Shown here: in pieces, positions 15,296 to 61,894 of the stretch
Position numbering within the stretch: the first letter of the stretch is position 1
Layout of the letters: each line of letters begins with the position of its first letter
IMG/VR virus record: IMGVR_UViG_3300042558_003617
Coordinates: 8,457-72,456 of that record
Length of the DNA stretch: 64,000 bases
Source: a virus
Reading direction: 5' to 3' (one strand)
Translations under genes and position numbers: made by a program
The notes under the pieces: model-generated
What the model was told of the DNA's origin: nothing
Seen by the model: only the letters and a program-made list of their open reading frames with translations
Database searches by the model: none

Positions 15296-15383
15296 GAACA
15301 TAATCAATCGAATCAAATTGGAAATTCACTACCGCCGAAAGCTCAAAGAGTTACGCAAACGAGACCCATTTATCTACAAATGA
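15282..15383 (+). CDS. Small basic protein (33 aa) coupled to carbamoyltransferase
   Basis: MNWIKNIINRIKLEIHYRRKLKELRKRDPFIYK, SD AAGGA, ATGA overlap with next gene. Confidence 0.6.
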   Translation: MNWIKNIINRIKLEIHYRRKLKELRKRDPFIYK

Positions 15384-16867
15384 ATATACTGGGAATCGCA
15401 GCTGGATTTCATGATGCGGCAGCCACAGTGATATCTCCCCAGGGTGATATCTTGTTTGCTGGACATAGTGAACGCTACAGCAAGAAAAAAAATGACGAAA
15501 ACCTATGTCTTGAATTGATTCAAGATGCCGTGGATTATGGCAACACAATCAATCAGATTGCCTACTATGAACGACCATGGTTGAAACAGTTGCGACAATT
15601 GTACTCGGGACAGGGCATAGAATGGAACAAGTTAACAGCTAGACGCATCATCAATGATCAATTAGGCGGCCTGGTCACGTTGCCAGCACGCATCAGCACG
15701 CACAGCCATCATCTCAGTCATGCAGCCGGTGGATTCCAAACCAGCCCGTTTGATCGTGCTACTGTGGTGGTAATTGATGCCATTGGGGAATTTGACACAA
15801 TAACAATATGGGCGGCAGAATATGATAAATTTGGTAAAGCGCATTATCGCAAGATGTGGAGCCAGTGTTATCCGCATAGCATCGGACTCTTTTATTCAGC
15901 AGCGACTGGCCGCGTTGGCCTACGTGTACTAGACGAAGAGTATATACTAATGGGCATGGCTGCATATGGCGACCGCAAAATGTCCAACAAGTTTAAATAT
16001 GATTTTGTTGCCGACGAATGGAATATCAAGTTTACACAAAATCTGCACACAGGAATAGACAAATCTTATCTTGAAAAATCAAATGACATGGACTTGGCTG
16101 CTGGTGCTCAGGAACTGGCAGAGCAGTTGATTCTAAATGTGATGTTACGTGCAAGACAATTCAACTGGAGCAACAATCTGGTTTACATGGGCGGGGTTGC
16201 ACTTAATTGTGCAGCCAATGCACGAATAGGGCGTTACTTTGATAATATATGGATTATGCCTTGCCCGGGTGATGCTGGCAGCAGTCTTGGCGCTGCCGCA
16301 CTGACTCTTGGGCGCAAAATCAACTGGCAAAATGCTTTTTTGGGTCATGATATTCCTGGTCCCTATCCCGTTAACAGTATCCTGGATCGGCTACTGGCTG
16401 ACAAAATTGTAGGAGTTGCCTCGGGCCGGGCTGAGTTTGGTCCCAGAGCCCTAGGAAATCGCAGTTTACTGGCTGACCCCAGAGGTCAAGAAATCAAGGA
16501 GAAAGTAAATGACATCAAACGACGACAACAATTCAGACCTTTTGCGCCCGTTATTTTGGAAGAATTGGCTGATACTTACTTTGATATGCCTGGGGGTTTC
16601 GGCAACAGTAGGTATATGCAGTCAGTCGCTCGTTGCAGGGTTCCTGACTTATTTCCTGCTATCGTTCACGCTGACGGTACTAGTCGTGTACAGACAGTGC
16701 CGCGAGATGGAAGTGGAATTAGAGAACTGCTCGAAAAGTGGTACGTCATGACCGACTGCCCCATGTTGCTCAACACCAGCCTTAACATACGTGGTGAGCC
16801 CATGGTCAACAATCGAGCAGATGCAGATAGATTTGAACAACAATACGGAGTGAAAGTATGCAGTTAG
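15380..16867 (+). CDS. Carbamoyltransferase (NodU/CmcH family)
   Basis: HDAAA, ERYSKKK, HHLSHAA, DAIGE, GGVALNC, EFGPRALGNRS, RPFAP, LLNTSLN. Confidence 0.95.
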   Translation: MNILGIAAGFHDAAATVISPQGDILFAGHSERYSKKKNDENLCLELIQDAVDYGNTINQIAYYERPWLKQLRQLYSGQGIEWNKLTARRIINDQLGGLVTLPARISTHSHHLSHAAGGFQTSPFDRATVVVIDAIGEFDTITIWAAEYDKFGKAHYRKMWSQCYPHSIGLFYSAATGRVGLRVLDEEYILMGMAAYGDRKMSNKFKYDFVADEWNIKFTQNLHTGIDKSYLEKSNDMDLAAGAQELAEQLILNVMLRARQFNWSNNLVYMGGVALNCAANARIGRYFDNIWIMPCPGDAGSSLGAAALTLGRKINWQNAFLGHDIPGPYPVNSILDRLLADKIVGVASGRAEFGPRALGNRSLLADPRGQEIKEKVNDIKRRQQFRPFAPVILEELADTYFDMPGGFGNSRYMQSVARCRVPDLFPAIVHADGTSRVQTVPRDGSGIRELLEKWYVMTDCPMLLNTSLNIRGEPMVNNRADADRFEQQYGVKVCS

Positions 16868-43922: not shown

Positions 43923-44810
43923 ATGACCAATCAAATACAACTTTCGACCAAGCACGGTCAGGTCCTGGTCGAACTACTTGACACTGAGTTTGTTCACTTC
44001 TGGAAAACTCATTATGATCAAATGGTTGATTGTTACAGCCTAACACCTAGACACGTGCCCTGGCCCAATTATCAGCCCTGCAGCCACGAAACTGTTGACA
44101 CACTAATTGATCGCATTTTGAACGTGATCAAAACAATTAACTCCAGCAGTTACCTATGCCCGTTACCGGAAATTGTAACCAAAGATCAATTGAGTAGATT
44201 GGATTTGAGCACACAACAATTGCTCAATCGATTACACAGATATGCAGTAGTAGCTACAGAATTTGGAAATCGATGGCATCACAACGGGCAGGAAGAATTT
44301 AACCCTGTACCCTATACCAACGATGAATTCATGTACAACATCAATGTGTTAAATCAAAGCATTCATTACCTTGAAGAATATGTAATAACACCACACAAAC
44401 AAGAATTCTTGCGACAAGTACAAACAGTAGAGTTTGTTTTTGAGTCATCTAAATACCAAGATGTTGACGTTTTTCTAGATGGATCAGCTGTTGCAATCCC
44501 TGACGAAATGCAACAGCATCTCAGATTGTCGGGGTATGATGTGTGGATCAAAAAAGATCTACTGGGAAAAGACTTTATAACTGCATTTGCAGATCATGAT
44601 GACCCTGCACAATTTGACATACGTCCACCGCCTACAATCAGTGGCGGTATCGCAATTGATCTTGACCAAGGTAGGGACAACCTATTTGACAGTCCTTTAT
44701 TTGCTGCCTGGCTCGGACAATCTCCCAATGATACACATGGTAGCTATCCATTGGGCAAAGTCATTTCTGGTAAAGAAAACTTATTAAAATTCAGCAGACG
44801 TTTCTGGTAG
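43923..44810 (+). CDS. Hypothetical protein (paralogue of 14207..15295)
   Basis: Start at MTNQ, TAAGTA 5 nt upstream; LNRLHRY, LNQSIHYLE. Confidence 0.7.
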   Translation: MTNQIQLSTKHGQVLVELLDTEFVHFWKTHYDQMVDCYSLTPRHVPWPNYQPCSHETVDTLIDRILNVIKTINSSSYLCPLPEIVTKDQLSRLDLSTQQLLNRLHRYAVVATEFGNRWHHNGQEEFNPVPYTNDEFMYNINVLNQSIHYLEEYVITPHKQEFLRQVQTVEFVFESSKYQDVDVFLDGSAVAIPDEMQQHLRLSGYDVWIKKDLLGKDFITAFADHDDPAQFDIRPPPTISGGIAIDLDQGRDNLFDSPLFAAWLGQSPNDTHGSYPLGKVISGKENLLKFSRRFW

Positions 44811-44878
44811 CTCCACCGGGTAACGATCCCAGGACTGCCGGTTATCAGCCGACTGTTATTCCATTTAACTACAGAGCT
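44805..44878 (-). tRNA. tRNA-Ile(GAT)
   Basis: GTCGG-CTGATAA-CCGGC; T-loop ATCGTTA. Confidence 0.88.
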
Positions 44879-48183: not shown

Positions 48184-50238
48184 TTACTTGCTTGTGGCTC
48201 TAAACACACCGTCCCAATCGCCGGGCAAGTTGGCCACACGCATTTCTGCAATACGTTCAACCCATAATTCGTAGTAATGGGTCATTTTTCCGTCAAATTC
48301 ATCCTTGATGGTTTCAATCAAGGCAAGAGTCTTGTCCCACTGCTGTTTACGATAGTATTCTAACATCAAGTCGTGAATCTCTTTGGCATGATTCCATTTG
48401 GACATTTCCTCAGCGGTGGGATTGTAGAACACTGTGTATATGGTTACACCTTCTTTTTTGCCCTTGACTGCAATACAGTCTAGTTCAATTGTGAAATAAT
48501 CAGTGCCCAATCGTTCAGCAGTGGCTGGGCCTAACACAATTAAAACTCCGTAATTTTTACTTTGTCCTTCGAGCCTACTAGCCAAGTTAACAGCGTCTCC
48601 AAGGCAGGTGTAATCAAACCTTTGTTCGCCGCCCATGTTGCCAACCACAACAACCCCAGTATTACAACCGATCCCAAGACCAAAAGGAGGCACGCCTTCT
48701 TCAGCAATTTCATCATTAAATATTTTAACGGCATCCAACATCTCCAGTGCAGCCTTAACAGAATCTTTCGCATGTTTAGTATTATCTAACGGTGCGTTCC
48801 AAAATGACATTGTAGCATCACCGATGTATTTGTCAAGTGTGCCTTCGTTTTCAAGAATGACTTTGGTTACCACAGTCATATAACGATTCATGATTTTGGT
48901 TAGACCTTGTACATCTTTACCATAGTGTTCACTAATACTAGTAAAGCCACGCACATCGCTAAACTGAATTGTCAAGTCTTGTTCTGTTCCGCCTAGAACC
49001 AGTAAACTAGGATCCTTGACCAACTTGGCCACAAGATCTGGACTCAAGTAACTACCGAACTGTTTCTTGATCTGTTGCTTTTGCAAAAACTCACTCACAA
49101 ACTTTACCATAAAGGCATGCAAAGCGACCAAGCCAATGCCAACTGCAAAGGCAGCACTATCGAATAAGAATAGGTAATGGCTATAAGCAAACATACTGCC
49201 AGCAATGACGCTGCCAATCGTAACCACAGTTGCCGCAATGCCCACATAAGTCCACCTCATTAAAAAGATTAATAAAATGCCAGCCAATGCAATGCTGACT
49301 ATTTCTAGCTCATCGGCGTATCCAGGACGTTGAATTGATGTGCCACTCAACATTGTGCCTAACAAACTAGCCTGTAGTTCTTGTGGCCAAATTTCACCTC
49401 GACTGGTTGCAATTGGGTTTACAAGTCCTGCCGCACTCAGACCAACAATGACAATTTCGCCATTGAAGTCCTTGGGCAAATCAGCCAGACTATGTTGTGA
49501 GGGACGCTGGCTCCAATCAATCCAAACACGGCTTAGCGGGTCCACTGTGATTTTGTTTAGCTTGGGAACCCTAAGTGCCTCTACACCCATGTCTGTGATT
49601 TTAACTTGTATCTTTGTGTCGCCTGCTGCCAGCCTCAAAGTTTCCAATGCCAAACTAGGATGTATAGTGTCTTGGCTCATGATCAACAAAGGCATACGTC
49701 GAACAACGCCGTCAATCTCTGGGAATGTATTAACGACTCCAACACCGGCTGCACGTTCTTCTAGCATGGGAACGTTGGCAATGATACCAGGATACTCTAC
49801 CAACGTGCCGTGTGCATCTTGACCCACAACTTGAACAGCTGATCCAAATGTAGTGTTTTTACTTTTGGAACCAGCCACTTGAGGCAACACAGTGGCGTAT
49901 TGTCCAAGAGCTTTGCTCAGTTGAACATCGCCACCAAATCTGTCAGACTCGGGCATGAGCACGTTAAACACAACCAATCCAGCATTGCGCTTGTAAAGAT
50001 CTTCAATGATGGCAGCATAGGTTGTTCGCGGGAATGGAAATTGTCCATATTTGTCCAATGCCGCTTCGTCGATGTTTACTGTGTGTACTGGTATTTCTTT
50101 GGCAGGTTGGCTGGTAACCAATTGGTCAAAGTAGCGTAGTCTCACGCTTTCAACAAATGTAGGATCCCAGGCACGTACCAGCATCACTATTAACAAGGTG
50201 AGCAAGGCAGTCCATGGGTTTAGTAATACTTTTTTCAT
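48184..50238 (-). CDS. CHASE2-domain class III adenylate cyclase
   Basis: N-terminal TM, DGVVRRMPL (CHASE2), 3 TMs, FSDVRGFT, DKYIGDA, GDAVNLASRLE. Confidence 0.93.
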   Translation of the reverse strand: MKKVLLNPWTALLTLLIVMLVRAWDPTFVESVRLRYFDQLVTSQPAKEIPVHTVNIDEAALDKYGQFPFPRTTYAAIIEDLYKRNAGLVVFNVLMPESDRFGGDVQLSKALGQYATVLPQVAGSKSKNTTFGSAVQVVGQDAHGTLVEYPGIIANVPMLEERAAGVGVVNTFPEIDGVVRRMPLLIMSQDTIHPSLALETLRLAAGDTKIQVKITDMGVEALRVPKLNKITVDPLSRVWIDWSQRPSQHSLADLPKDFNGEIVIVGLSAAGLVNPIATSRGEIWPQELQASLLGTMLSGTSIQRPGYADELEIVSIALAGILLIFLMRWTYVGIAATVVTIGSVIAGSMFAYSHYLFLFDSAAFAVGIGLVALHAFMVKFVSEFLQKQQIKKQFGSYLSPDLVAKLVKDPSLLVLGGTEQDLTIQFSDVRGFTSISEHYGKDVQGLTKIMNRYMTVVTKVILENEGTLDKYIGDATMSFWNAPLDNTKHAKDSVKAALEMLDAVKIFNDEIAEEGVPPFGLGIGCNTGVVVVGNMGGEQRFDYTCLGDAVNLASRLEGQSKNYGVLIVLGPATAERLGTDYFTIELDCIAVKGKKEGVTIYTVFYNPTAEEMSKWNHAKEIHDLMLEYYRKQQWDKTLALIETIKDEFDGKMTHYYELWVERIAEMRVANLPGDWDGVFRATSK

Positions 50239-53894: not shown

Positions 53895-54833
53895 TTATTT
53901 CCAGAACTGTAGTCTGGACCAGACACTTTTTTCTTTGCTTCCTTCATCACGCTTTGCGATATCGGACTGTAGTGGAGTGGATGGAGCTTTGGCAGCTCCT
54001 TCACGTGGGGTTTCCTTTTGAACCAACTCATTAGATTTCTCCTTGAATTTCCATAGGCCCGTGCGTTCACCTTTGTTAATCAATTCAATTACTGCTGTTT
54101 CAATTGCTGAACGTAGAGCGTAGTTGCCTGGCTCGTTGAATGTTTGACTTGAGTCAAACTCAAATGCTCGTGTTGCCTGGTTGAAAAATTTCAACGCAGT
54201 AGTGCCATCAGCAGTACTGAGCAAGTTCTTTTCCACTGTAACAGTGGTTAATACTTCCCCAGTTTGTACACTTACCAAACGTAGGCTGATAACAACCACG
54301 TCTTGAGTGTAGGCAGTTTGTGCGCCAATACCCAACCAACGTGCTCCAGTGCCACCTGTTAGGGTATTGCTGTTGTAATCAATAATGCCACCTTCTAGAA
54401 TAACACCTGCCATTTGTAGTGGAGGTAACATCTTGGCATTTGCGCCTTCGTAGATCTCACGTGTCTGTTTGATCATCTGACGTTCTTTTAACAAGTTGTC
54501 TAGGCCAACACGTTCAACAACTGTGAACCATTGACGATTGCCGACTTCTTGAAGACTCTTCATCAAGTATGCTTCAGCACCTTGTGTAACTGCTGTTGAG
54601 AACAAGCTCAACGTTGAACTTGGTTTACGTTGTCCCGTCAGATCTTTGAAACCATATACAGCCACTGTTACTGCTGGACCTGCCGGTGCTGGTATGTTGG
54701 CAAAACTTTTGTTGATTGTTTCGCTGACACGAGCTTCTTCTTTGATCTTCGTATCTCCCCAAGGACGTACTGTTGAGCAACCTGCCAAGGCTACAACTGC
54801 TAGAGCGATCAAGGATAATTTAATTGTTTTCAT
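53895..54833 (-). CDS. csgG: Curli secretion channel CsgG-family lipoprotein
   Basis: Lipobox LAGC; VAVYGFKDLTGQRK, STAVTQGA, VVERVGLDNLLKERQ, LEGGIIDY. Confidence 0.92.
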   Translation of the reverse strand: MKTIKLSLIALAVVALAGCSTVRPWGDTKIKEEARVSETINKSFANIPAPAGPAVTVAVYGFKDLTGQRKPSSTLSLFSTAVTQGAEAYLMKSLQEVGNRQWFTVVERVGLDNLLKERQMIKQTREIYEGANAKMLPPLQMAGVILEGGIIDYNSNTLTGGTGARWLGIGAQTAYTQDVVVISLRLVSVQTGEVLTTVTVEKNLLSTADGTTALKFFNQATRAFEFDSSQTFNEPGNYALRSAIETAVIELINKGERTGLWKFKEKSNELVQKETPREGAAKAPSTPLQSDIAKRDEGSKEKSVWSRLQFWK

Positions 54834-54842
54834 TTTTTCTCC

Positions 54843-55316
54843 TTAAAAACCAAAACTAGCAATTGGAACTGTAACAGTGGTCACAGTGCCCTTGGCATCT
54901 ACCACTGTTAATGTAACTCGGTCATTGGCTTTGACCCAGGTTACTGTATTGTTGTCTAATTTAAACGTTCCTGTAGTGGGATTTACACAACCGGGAATTG
55001 CTGAACCATCTGCGGCTGCACAACGATTTTGAAATAAGTTGTTGCTTAACTGTGTAGCCAGTTGGGCATATACTTGGCTTTGGAATAGACTCATGAATCT
55101 ATTCAACGGTGTGTTTAGTAAGTCGGCTTCGGCTTTGGCGATGGCGGCTTTTTTGTCTGCTTCGATAGCATCACGTCGTGACTTTTCTATTGAATCAATG
55201 GTCAATACGTGACTGCTAAATCCAATTCCGCTAAAGGCCGGATTTTTAAACTGATGAACAAGCTCGGAGTGAGCAACAATCGGGCACAGTAACAAAACCA
55301 TTAGGATTTTTTTCAT
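54843..55316 (-). CDS. csgF: Curli assembly protein CsgF-like
   Basis: Signal peptide then SELVHQFKNPAFSG; adjacent to csgG. Confidence 0.8.
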   Translation of the reverse strand: MKKILMVLLLCPIVAHSELVHQFKNPAFSGIGFSSHVLTIDSIEKSRRDAIEADKKAAIAKAEADLLNTPLNRFMSLFQSQVYAQLATQLSNNLFQNRCAAADGSAIPGCVNPTTGTFKLDNNTVTWVKANDRVTLTVVDAKGTVTTVTVPIASFGF

Positions 55317-56270: not shown

Positions 56271-56816
56271 TTAGTGATGACCTTTGACTTTGCCTTTGAT
56301 CGCATCGGCAATGGCATCCTCCATGGTAATAGCAATCATTCCAGTTGCATCCATGCCCATGTCGCGACATCGAAATTGTTCCATTCCACTCTCGCCACCA
56401 TGCAAGTGACCGTGCAAGTGAACAGCACCCCTGTGCATTTGGTCCCACTCAGCAATGGGGTAGTGGAACATCACAACCTTTGTTCCATTATAGTTGATGT
56501 CTAGGTACTTGTGTACTTCTAGGAAACATCTTCGGAAAGTGGGATCATTGAGTATCTTGCGATCATGGTTGCCTTCGATCAATATTTTTGTGCCATTGCA
56601 ACGATTCATGTACTCTGCTGCTTTTTGTGCAGGCAAGAAAGCCACATCGCCGAGTATGTAAACTTTATCTTCAGGTGCAATCAAGTCGTTCCATTCCTTG
56701 ATCATTGCCTCGTTCATGTAGTTTACATCATTGCGAAACCGAGCACGTGACACTGAACAAAAACTCATGATGTTGGTATGTCCAAAATGCAAATCGCTGG
56801 TTACGAATGTTTTCAT
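56271..56816 (-). CDS. Calcineurin-like metallophosphoesterase
   Basis: SDLHFGH, LGD, GNHD, HGHLH; ATG 6 nt after TTGACA-17-TATAAT (56851-56823). Confidence 0.9.
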   Translation of the reverse strand: MKTFVTSDLHFGHTNIMSFCSVSRARFRNDVNYMNEAMIKEWNDLIAPEDKVYILGDVAFLPAQKAAEYMNRCNGTKILIEGNHDRKILNDPTFRRCFLEVHKYLDINYNGTKVVMFHYPIAEWDQMHRGAVHLHGHLHGGESGMEQFRCRDMGMDATGMIAITMEDAIADAIKGKVKGHH

Positions 56817-56857
56817 AGTTGTATTATACACTTAACTGAATACTTTGTCAACAGTAT

Positions 56858-57322
56858 TCAAACATGCCAAATCTCATGAAATCCTTCTTCCAGAGTTGGC
56901 ATTTCAAAATTCCATACCATGTCATGTAACACATGTTCTGGAATGACTTTTCCAGGGCGTGTTTTTAGTCTGCGCTGGTGTTCTTGCTCATCCGGTGTTT
57001 GGAACACTATAGCAATTGCGTAATAGTCAGGCAACATGCGGAACTTGCGAGTACGACTTGCAAGAGTAGTGCTGGTCTGATCCCAGATAATATCCTTGCC
57101 TGCATCACGTGCACCATTTACGGCACCTGCCATTCTTGCAACAGCCACAGGCATGTATTCCTCAAACACTTCAGAATAGGTTTTACCAACATTCTCGGCC
57201 CACTCTTCAACATACTTATCGGTTGAAATGTACGCACAGTCTCTAAACCAGTCTTGATTTTTTGCCCAGGTGGTTTTACCCGATCCGGGTACACCAATCA
57301 ACATGTATAGTTTATTTTTCAT
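56858..57322 (-). CDS. P-loop kinase (AAA_33 / polynucleotide kinase-like)
   Basis: GVPGSGKTT, ISTD, IIWDQT. Confidence 0.85.
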   Translation of the reverse strand: MKNKLYMLIGVPGSGKTTWAKNQDWFRDCAYISTDKYVEEWAENVGKTYSEVFEEYMPVAVARMAGAVNGARDAGKDIIWDQTSTTLASRTRKFRMLPDYYAIAIVFQTPDEQEHQRRLKTRPGKVIPEHVLHDMVWNFEMPTLEEGFHEIWHV

Positions 57323-57337
57323 TTTTTTTACCAACGC

Positions 57338-57429
57338 TGGTACCTCCGCCGGGACTCGAACCCAGATGAACCAATTATCTGTTGCTTACGGGATATAAAT
57401 CCGCCGTTTTACCATTAAACTACAGAGGC
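57338..57429 (-). tRNA. tRNA-Ile(TAT)-like with extra arm
   Basis: Acceptor GCCTCTG/CGGAGGT, loop TTTATAT, 22-nt variable region containing CAA-CAGATAA-TTG. Confidence 0.75.
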
Positions 57430-57434
57430 ATTAT

Positions 57435-57510
57435 TGGTTGCGGGGCTTGGATTTGAACCAAGGATGGCAAAGGCTTATGAGACCTCGCTGGTGACCGGAC
57501 CCTCCCCGCG
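57435..57510 (-). tRNA. tRNA-fMet-like (CAT)
   Basis: C1:A72 mismatch, CGCGGGG start, T-loop TTCAAAT, loop CTCATAA; short D-arm. Confidence 0.8.
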
Positions 57511-57513
57511 ATA

Positions 57514-57650
57514 ACTTTATAGGTGCTCTCTGTTGGAATCGAACCAAACTGTTTAACTCCGTATCTTCCTGGCACTTTCGGTAGTTAGTCGACTTAGTAC
57601 CTAACTCGTGTTATCCAGTGTAGTTAAACTTCAAAGAGCATTTATAAAGT
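57514..57650 (-). ncRNA. tRNA-like RNA (acceptor stem plus T-arm with large insert)
   Basis: GCTCTTT/AGAGAGC-ACC, TTGG-TTCGATT-CCAA, GTTTAACT/AGTTAAAC helix, extended closing stem. Confidence 0.6.
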
Positions 57651-57858
57651 GTCCGGCTACTCTCACCACAAGAGCCCCGGACTGGGCTGTCTACTCCGTC
57701 TACGTATTTGTTCTTATGGTAAAGGTTAGCGTTCCTCACCCTAGGCAGTTTTCAGTATCTCCGAACAGGAGACTGTAAGGTCAGGTCCTAGTGTACCCCC
57801 TGGTCTATCGTTACAGGGACGCTATTTCGTTAACGTAGAAATAGTAAGACGGGGTCTG
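57651..57858 (-). ncRNA. Unassigned structured RNA downstream of coiled-coil gene
   Basis: ACCCCGTCT/AGACGGAGT, CTATTTC/GAAATAG, CCCTG/CAGGG, CTAGG/CCTAG, TCTCC/GGAGA, GTCCGG/CCGGAC. Confidence 0.55.

Positions 57859-59978: not shown

Positions 59979-61894
<1,916 letters not shown>

Follow-up and report, generated by a model that had tools for sequence, protein, structure and literature searches.

Identification of a five-armed tRNA-Ile(UAU) gene

The DNA analysed here is a 64,000-nucleotide (nt) stretch, hereafter the window, which makes up most of a 72,456-bp virus contig (IMGVR_UViG_3300042558_003617) with a G+C content of 44%. Sequence of this contig is present in 23 lake-water DNA runs. 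ARAGORN predicted 34 tRNA genes in the window, every one of them on the minus strand, including a 92-nt tRNA-Ile(tat) gene at 57338-57429 that carries a hairpin in its variable region in addition to the usual arms of the cloverleaf. The Rfam tRNA model RF00005 matched positions 57341-57429 with a score of 54.4 bits (gathering score 29) and an E value of 5e-11, and its alignment placed a 19-nt insertion within the variable region. The initial annotation, made from the letters alone, had described a tRNA-Ile(TAT) with a second hairpin at this position; ARAGORN, Rfam and the sequence itself agree with it. The stems, U33, purine 37, GTTCRA T loop, discriminator and CCA of the RF00005 cloverleaf were all present (Table 1). 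Moving 3' from the anticodon arm, the window copy comprises a single A, the extra hairpin, CAU, the T arm, A73 and CCA, and the closing pair 31-39 of its anticodon stem is an A-C mismatch. The window gene belongs, in intact form, to a large and conserved family of tRNAs that combine a UAU anticodon with a fifth arm.

Table 1. Structural features of the tRNA-Ile(UAU) gene in the window
Feature	Position	Strand	Basis or remark
tRNA-Ile(UAU) gene, whole, 92 nt	57338..57429	-	ARAGORN, Rfam RF00005, sequence
Encoded CCA end; discriminator A	57338-57340; 57341	-	sequence
Acceptor stem, 5' strand	57423..57429	-	pairs with 57342-57348; G1-U72 in window copy
Acceptor stem, 3' strand	57342..57348	-	covariation in 126-sequence alignment
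D arm, 4-bp stem, 7-nt loop with GG	57406..57420	-	Rfam match and alignment
Anticodon arm GCGGA/UUUAUAU/CCCGU	57388..57404	-	ARAGORN, Rfam, sequence; anticodon UAU = 57395-57397
T arm CUGGG/UUCGAGU/CCCGG	57349..57365	-	Rfam match and alignment
Extra variable-region hairpin, 18 nt, stem AGCAA / UUG(G)UU	57369..57386	-	bulged G = 57371
Extra-hairpin loop CAGAUAA, 7 nt	57375..57381	-	GAU at the anticodon position, then AA

When the window copy was folded as a single sequence, the minimum free energy structure was not a cloverleaf (z = 0.44), and 133 of 200 shuffled sequences folded as well or better. Single-sequence folding is therefore uninformative, and the case that the hairpin is not a product of chance rests on comparison with homologues.

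Conservation of the fifth arm

Homologues were collected by three scans. The first searched viral sequences with a 16-mer of the extra arm and matched at least 119 stretches; among the matches listed, 104 were the armed tRNA as judged by their flanks and 15 were unrelated sequence. The second viral scan used the D and anticodon arms only and returned 120 stretches. Over the loci of both viral scans, 142 sites were matched among the matches listed, 95 with the 16-mer and 47 lacking it. ARAGORN called at least 147 UAU tRNAs in the viral loci and the window, all of 89-94 nt and 105 of them unique. The third scan covered prokaryotes at one genome per species with a pattern fixing the anticodon loop, part of its stem, YAGATWA and the T loop, and yielded 59 stretches, 56 of which were called as tRNA-Ile(tat) of 88-95 nt. 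An alignment of 126 unique sequences, 79 viral and 47 bacterial, was built.

A cloverleaf with the fifth arm accounted for this alignment, with 95.8% of cells paired and a covariation of 0.600 compared with 0.200 in shuffled alignments; none of 500 shuffles reached the observed value, and controls in which the pairing partners were slid gave 0.07-0.16. All seven pairs of the acceptor stem covary (99.9% of cells paired), two of the four D-stem pairs covary from UA to CG, and all five T-stem pairs vary on both sides. The covariation of the seven acceptor and five T pairs defines a 7/5 acceptor/T branch. The four outer pairs of the anticodon stem are invariant in all 126 sequences, and pair 31-39 is A-C in 75 and G-C or G-U in 49. 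The variable region is 21-25 nt long across the family.

RNAalifold, unaided, predicted the inner three pairs of the extra arm and its 7-nt loop. In the window copy the pairing favoured by covariation is A-U, G-U, C-G, A-U and A-U around CAGAUAA, with one bulged G. The hairpin first proposed for this region thus stands; its continuous stem of AGCAA with UUGGU, which would set G against G, gives way to the bulged form. The first inner pair is AU in 67 sequences, GC in 55 and UA in three, the second is AU in 72, CG in 49 and UA in five, and the next pair outward is CG in 120 and AU in four. Beyond the bulge the pair is GC (81) or GU (42), and the outermost pair is formed in just 74 of 125 sequences. 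The stem occurs in 28 versions, and the bulged G is kept in 125 of 126. The loop is near-invariant: C is found at the first position in 123 of the 126 sequences, A, G, A and U at the next four in every one, A at the sixth in 121 and A at the last in all. Loop positions 2-5 and 7 are thus invariant, and the conservation of the GAU loop on which the original proposal depended was borne out.

The anticodon UAU is likewise invariant in the alignment, but the searches selected for it, and two of the three scans fixed part of the extra loop, so that loop constancy among their matches is partly built in. Samples blind to the loop are provided by the 47 viral loci lacking the 16-mer, by eight genomes of a single bacterial order and by blastn matches. 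The hairpin was present at all 47 viral loci, with loops of CAGATAA in 41, CAGATTA in five and TAGATAA in one. The bacterial sample comprised 401 genomes of the order of Xanthomonas translucens, of which eight (2%) were carriers found through the anticodon arm alone; the arm was present in all eight, with seven loops of CAGATAA and one damaged CAGGTAA. The bare anticodon-arm pattern gave 10 matches in these 401 genomes against approximately 20 in a reversed control, a number near chance, and two of the 10 were not tRNAs. The copy in Acinetobacter phage vB_AbaS_qsb1 differs in the anticodon stem and keeps the loop. Phages Luma and henriette 12B8 differ from the window in the acceptor and D arms but share with it an identical stretch of 16 nt in the extra arm.

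The stem varies by compensatory pairs while the loop hardly varies, which points to selection on the shape of the one and the sequence of the other. On this comparative evidence the fifth arm is a real RNA hairpin in which stem sequence is free and the loop CAGAUAA and bulged G are fixed, and the pattern is the signature expected of a hairpin that is read by something sequence-specific.

Two kinds of departure were seen. Six copies carry the loop CAGAUUA, five of them viral (loci L122, L124, L133, L167 and L163) and one bacterial (L203). Four of the viral copies are related and have C73, L163 has U73 and L203 keeps A73; these copies may be charged differently or not charged. The decaying copy at L240, in a genome of the X. 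translucens order, combines the CAGGUAA loop with a shortened D arm and an altered T loop, and evidently the gene can be lost by decay where it is not needed.

Occurrence of the family

Named carriers include Xanthomonas, Stenotrophomonas, Pseudoxanthomonas, Lysobacter, Rudaea, Microbulbifer, Marinobacter and Cellvibrio. Others are several Alphaproteobacteria and metagenome-assembled genomes (MAGs) of Planctomycetota, Nitrospirales, Verrucomicrobia, Bacteroidota and Firmicutes. At 39 of the bacterial loci the gene is solitary or accompanied by a single further tRNA gene, the remainder lying in tRNA clusters, and the chromosomal contexts differ even among Xanthomonas species.

Among named phages, distant blastn searches recovered 93-nt 'tRNA-Ile' genes in 40 Vibrio phage records, and the armed tRNA is present in about 43 such records as well as in Acinetobacter phage vB_AbaS_qsb1. 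The homologue is mis-labelled as tRNA-Arg in one Vibrio phage record and is otherwise annotated simply as tRNA-Ile. A megablast search with 2 kb around the window gene found no match among named phages. Twelve plasmid records carry the armed tRNA, 10 from Xanthomonas and two from Alteromonas mediterranea, and seven of these plasmids are conjugative. In plasmid records including NC_007505, NC_007507, NZ_CP060000/1, CP104904 and NZ_CP018025/8, the gene table lists no feature under the tRNA. Cultured carriers exist, including Vibrio phages propagated on V. campbellii BB120, Marinobacter and Microbulbifer.

Given the phage tRNA clusters, the plasmid copies and the differing chromosomal contexts, the family looks like cargo of mobile elements, distributed among phages, plasmids and scattered chromosomal sites. 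No description of a long-armed tRNA-Ile(UAU) from bacteria or phages was found in a search of open-access papers and preprints, which did not extend to supplementary tables. The family is widespread and apparently undescribed.

Decoding of AUA and isoleucine identity

AUA accounts for 241 of 1164 isoleucine codons in 61 long open reading frames (ORFs) of the window, or 12.4 per thousand codons. The meaning of the codon was assessed in the phage carbamoyltransferase gene, whose 10 AUA codons were compared with 120 homologues of 74-98% identity. The homologues have isoleucine at 80% of these positions, leucine at 13% and valine at 5%; the 23 AUU and AUC codons of the same alignment correspond to isoleucine at 79%, and the leucine codons to leucine at 82%. 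This comparison concerns one gene, three of whose 10 sites are isoleucine in all 120 homologues, and AUA in the homologues themselves is translated as isoleucine by convention. Since AUA sites behave like AUU and AUC sites, AUA is meant as isoleucine, and its recoding as leucine or serine is unlikely.

The sole CAU tRNA of the window (57435-57510, minus strand) lies 5 nt upstream of the UAU tRNA and is called as Met(cat). It has a C1xA72 mismatch, by which mark it is initiator-like. The UAU tRNA is therefore the sole candidate for reading AUA among the phage's own tRNAs.

The body of the UAU tRNA resembles that of a tRNA-Ile(GAU) of the same phage at 44805-44878. The anticodon loops of the window tRNA-Ile(GAU) genes are CUGAUAA (44805-44878) and UUGAUAA, and the extra loop CAGAUAA shares six of seven positions with the former, differing solely at the position of U33. 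The likeness to a tRNA-Ile(GAT) loop noted in the initial annotation is thus a close one. In Vibrio phage Luma, the tRNA-Ile(GAU) beside the long UAU tRNA (locus L001, 1599-1674, minus strand) has the loop CCGAUAA, with C33 in place of the near-universal U.

Isoleucine identity in E. coli draws on A38 and t6A37. The identity set further includes A73, an anticodon with G34 or lysidine34 together with A35 and U36, and, as minor determinants in the stems, C4-G69, U12-A23 and C29-G41, as given in the available text of PMC9976931. In the armed family the discriminator is A73 in 121 of 126 sequences, and U12-A23 and C4-G69 are found in 126 and 59, respectively. The true anticodon has U34, with A35 and U36, in all 126, and thus lacks the G34 or lysidine34 of the E. 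coli type. The consensus of the true loop is U/C-U-U-A-U-A-U/C, with A37 in every sequence and U or C at position 38 in 125, the remaining one having A. The extra loop has A at the equivalent of position 38 in all 126 sequences and A-A at the equivalents of 37 and 38 in 121.

Isoleucyl-tRNA synthetases of the carriers

An anticodon with U34 decodes AUA best, is accepted worst by bacterial isoleucyl-tRNA synthetase (IleRS) and risks reading AUG. The known solutions by which AUA is read are either chemical, through lysidine, agmatidine or pseudouridine, or enzymatic, through an altered IleRS. According to the available text of PMC3575796, E. coli IleRS charges tRNA-Ile(UAU) inefficiently; the enzyme stacks its Trp905 against the wobble base, and replacing this residue by Arg relieves the block. 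A TAT gene in a bacterium that has tilS and the Trp-type IleRS is judged there to be 'a poor substrate', and Ferrimonas balearica and Cyanothece PCC 7424, which have TAT genes, are named as carriers of this type. The word 'variable' is absent from that text, which never mentions the variable region. F. balearica and Cyanothece PCC 7424 were not among the 59 matches of the prokaryote scan, the pattern of which fixes the anticodon stem.

The C-terminus of IleRS was examined in eight carrier genomes. All six that have an IleRS with the zinc domain show the motif R-C-W, which is the Trp form: Marinobacter, Microbulbifer, Stenotrophomonas, X. translucens, a Rhodospirillales MAG and a Bacillales MAG. 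A Flavonifractor carrier has a 1046-amino-acid open frame for IleRS, and no ileS match was found in one carrier MAG that was searched.

Comparison with known systems

One counterpart is the class I tRNA-Ile(UAU) of bacteria that lack TilS, such as tRNA-Ile2 of Mycoplasma mobile, which likewise has a UAU anticodon and A73, reads AUA as isoleucine and is independent of lysidine (PMC3575796, available text). That tRNA combines a short variable loop with an IleRS in which Arg or Lys replaces Trp905, whereas the armed family has the fifth arm, the Trp form in all six zinc-domain enzymes and carriers that are mobile elements. Assignment to a class I tRNA-Ile(UAU) of the M. mobile type was ruled out by the variable region of 21-25 nt and the R-C-W motif in those six.

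The tRNA-Ile2 with CAU converted to lysidine by TilS solves the same problem, in that AUA is read as isoleucine without AUG and the tRNA is recognisable to IleRS. Lysidine serves decoding and identity in one modification and needs a host enzyme, whereas the armed tRNA would use two arms and no dedicated enzyme.

A base-paired extra arm and a 7/5 branch are shared with the class II tRNAs (Leu, Ser, bacterial Tyr and Sec). The armed tRNA differs in its isoleucine-type anticodon and body, its fixed 7-nt loop and its bulged G; the class II tRNAs of the window have short variable loops. Despite the arm, membership of the Leu, Ser or Tyr class was rejected on the UAU anticodon, A73 and the 4-bp D stem, the identity marks of Ser and Tyr being G73 and G34/U35, respectively. 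The nematode nev-tRNA-Ile(UAU) and the bacterial allo-tRNA(UAU) likewise join a long extra arm to UAU. As far as the available texts describe them, the former have Leu- or Ser-type bodies, the latter have 8/4 and 9/3 branches, and they are charged with Leu, Ser or Ala (PMC3333845; PMC5389517). The armed tRNA, by comparison, has an isoleucine-like body, and AUA is used at isoleucine sites; its 7/5 branch, given by covariation, also excludes it from the allo-tRNAs, in which an 8/4 or 9/3 branch is found.

A precedent for a synthetase that reads an anticodon-arm mimic outside the anticodon position is the E. coli thrS operator, a hairpin that copies the cognate anticodon loop and is read by the synthetase (PMC9976931, available text). 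The thrS mimic sits in an mRNA leader and regulates translation, whereas by analogy that of the armed tRNA would lie inside the tRNA itself and have a putative reader.

A possible surrogate identity arm

Taken together, these features may describe a portable, TilS-independent decoder of AUA whose extra arm displays a spare isoleucine anticodon loop to IleRS or to another reader, a proposal made tentatively and slightly more apt to fail than to hold. A mobile element could not rely on the TilS of its host to convert a foreign CAU tRNA. A UAU anticodon with U34 would suit the ribosome and decode AUA unaided, yet would signal poorly to the IleRS usual in bacteria; a standard isoleucine loop, copying that of tRNA-Ile(GAU) (C32, G34, A35, U36, A37 and A38), would therefore be displayed on the fifth arm as a surrogate identity signal. 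The spare loop would be read directly by IleRS or by another reader of isoleucine-type loops, such as the t6A machinery, and one arm would carry the identity for decoding and the other that for charging. The narrower form, in which IleRS itself reads the fifth arm instead of the true anticodon, would make the molecule a natural two-arm adaptor in which the choice of amino acid is parted from the choice of codon, and would allow mobile elements to bring an AUA decoder into any host, without TilS; it is possible but doubtful.

Such a division between the arms fits the match of six of seven loop positions, the occurrence of A38 in the extra loop only, save for the single sequence noted above, and the Trp form of IleRS in six of six carriers. 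In these loci no tRNA but the UAU one has the fixed 7-nt loop, other odd long-armed tRNAs carrying short hairpins. At the U33 position, where every anticodon loop has U, the spare loop has A, which would stop it from acting as a decoding anticodon. The suggestion in the initial annotation that one arm decodes and the other serves IleRS is partly supported: both loops are conserved and the reading as isoleucine holds, service to IleRS by the second loop is putative, and decoding by that loop is unlikely. The decoy that was also suggested there is possible.

Several points weigh against this proposal. When a class I synthetase such as IleRS approaches the tRNA, the variable region faces the solvent, and for one IleRS monomer to engage both the fifth arm and the CCA end would need odd docking or a conformer in which the arms are swapped; this is the main difficulty. 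In a swapped conformer the second arm, as large as an anticodon arm at 5 bp and 7 nt, would stack beneath the D stem. Pure mimicry does not explain why the U33 equivalent is always A, the five viral and one bacterial CAGAUUA copies lose the A37 equivalent, and pair 29-41 is G-C in all 126 sequences, whereas the minor E. coli determinant is C29-G41. Other phage tRNAs bear extra arms with no likeness to an anticodon, so that an arm can be kept for other reasons. The pattern of the prokaryote scan required YAGATWA, and loop constancy in its 59 loci is to that extent built in. Finally, two of the eight carriers, the Clostridia-like Eubacterium and Bacillota MAGs, have a long IleRS with no zinc domain and may have no need of compensation; the Trp form is common in bacteria anyway, making the support from six of six weak, and the test by IleRS type is weak and mixed overall.

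Alternative explanations and neighbouring genes

The arm could instead be a sequence-specific handle for some other protein, such as a modifier of U34 or A37, a processing or repair enzyme, or a host nuclease that cleaves tRNA and against which the arm acts as shield or decoy. Modification of U34 or A37 would prevent misreading of AUG, and the likeness to the isoleucine loop would be either coincidence or bait for a nuclease or toxin that targets tRNA-Ile. Hairpins that bind proteins typically combine a fixed loop with a bulged G, mimicry has no need of the invariant A at loop position 2, and the extra arms of other phage tRNAs are in keeping with such a role. A published defence system cleaves tRNA-Tyr in its variable loop (PMC13096335, available text).

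Partner genes were sought by clustering the ORFs of 147 viral loci and by comparing with Pfam 138 proteins encoded beside the tRNA at 44 bacterial loci; this bacterial scan left out 32 of 170 proteins, which come from 12 loci where the tRNA lies in a cluster of tRNA genes. In the 147 viral loci and among the 138 bacterial neighbour proteins, neither a synthetase nor a gene for tRNA modification was found to travel with the tRNA, and no tRNA is a fixed neighbour. The commonest neighbour family occurs in 34 of the 147 viral loci, and no family exceeds three of the 138 bacterial proteins. Positions 56271-57334 (minus strand), directly downstream of the window tRNA, encode a P-loop kinase (AAA_33) together with a metallophosphoesterase-like ORF, and the families of the kinase and the metallophosphoesterase are near the tRNA in 12 and 34 of the viral loci, respectively. 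The bacterial neighbours include two RtcB, three Metallophos and one DTW protein by Pfam, numbers too small to carry weight; RtcB is directly upstream in two loci and a metallophosphoesterase directly downstream in two others (L215, L226, L178 and L217). These genes, which have the flavour of RNA repair and lend the handle some support, could be a repair cassette or shared synteny, and none is constant.

No partner gene accompanies the tRNA in the loci scanned. Because one and the same loop is found in phages, in plasmids and in the chromosomes of distant phyla, a partner, if there is one, must be a host factor that is universal, and this points back to the core enzymes of translation. A chance match to the isoleucine loop at six of seven positions is possible but unlikely. 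A role as handle for another protein is a serious rival to the proposal above but on balance somewhat unlikely.

The loop also contains AUA, the codon that the tRNA itself reads, and might base-pair with an anticodon loop, its own or that of a second copy, masking the anticodon or forming a dimer. The complementarity extends over four nucleotides, AUAA with UUAU (loop positions 4-7 with anticodon-loop positions 33-36), and is kept in 121 of 126 sequences. Four A-U pairs are weak, however, and the invariant A and G at loop positions 2-3 play no part in them; the CAGAUUA variants retain the UAU anticodon with no compensating change, two 5-bp hairpins leaving one junction could probably not easily kiss within a molecule, and no other tRNA of these loci has a comparable codon-bearing arm. 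Such codon mimicry is highly improbable.

That the molecule should be of class II, aminoacylated by LeuRS, SerRS or TyrRS, and recode or mistranslate AUA is scarcely credible. This reading would account for the long arm and for A73, which is also the leucine discriminator of E. coli (PMC9976931), and has precedents in nev-tRNA(UAU), which is charged with leucine in vitro (PMC3333845), and in the allo-tRNAs, among whose commonest anticodons is UAU (PMC5389517), in each case by the available text. The isoleucine-like AUA sites, the 7/5 rather than 8/4 or 9/3 branch, the 4-bp D stem, the lack of G73, a body resembling the phage tRNA-Ile(GAU) and a fixed 7-nt loop that differs from the variable arms of the window's Leu, Ser and Tyr tRNAs all speak against it.

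Excision of the arm, or its cleavage and re-joining, to leave an ordinary 75-nt mature tRNA-Ile(UAU) would be in keeping with the RtcB ligase or kinase/phosphoesterase genes beside some copies, but of 56 bacterial neighbourhoods the two with RtcB beside the tRNA are related and share a single arrangement, and a 516-nt RNA-library contig from a relative spans 57338-57429 without a gap and with four mismatches, although DNA carry-over or a precursor could produce such a contig; the excised piece envisaged initially is thus weakly opposed, and the idea is very improbable. The library concerned (X24) contains a small share of the window; its contigs cover the tRNA without showing ends, strand or maturity, and a lack of cover elsewhere carries no meaning. 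We know of no bacterial splicing system for the variable region of a tRNA.

Other features of the loci

The window at 57521-57650 (minus strand) encodes a tRNA-like RNA of approximately 125 nt that was called by neither ARAGORN nor Rfam; its T arm is good, and it is closed by a stem resembling an acceptor stem. Contigs of the RNA library cover 57521-57633 and 57733-57855.

Extra hairpins are also present on tRNAs whose variable loops are normally short (Lys, Asn, Glu, Cys, Ile-GAU and Thr), several with GAAA-type tetraloops. These non-UAU tRNAs are at loci L190, L205, L091, L161, L164, L198 and L224, in the same phage or prophage tRNA clusters.

The window further encodes unusual phage cargo at 15380-16867 (plus strand) and at 48184-50238, 53895-55316 and 59979-61598 (minus strand), comprising the carbamoyltransferase, a CHASE2-adenylate/guanylate cyclase, homologues of the curli-secretion proteins CsgG and CsgF, and a full-length GroEL.

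Biological implications

The reading of AUA as isoleucine is a classic hard case of the genetic code. If the proposed division of labour between the two arms is true, the armed tRNA would represent a third, purely RNA-level answer beside the chemical and enzymatic ones, and an example from nature of tRNA identity set free from decoding, a goal of genetic-code engineering. Carried on conjugative plasmids and phages, armed tRNAs may shape the expression of AT-rich foreign genes in GC-rich hosts.

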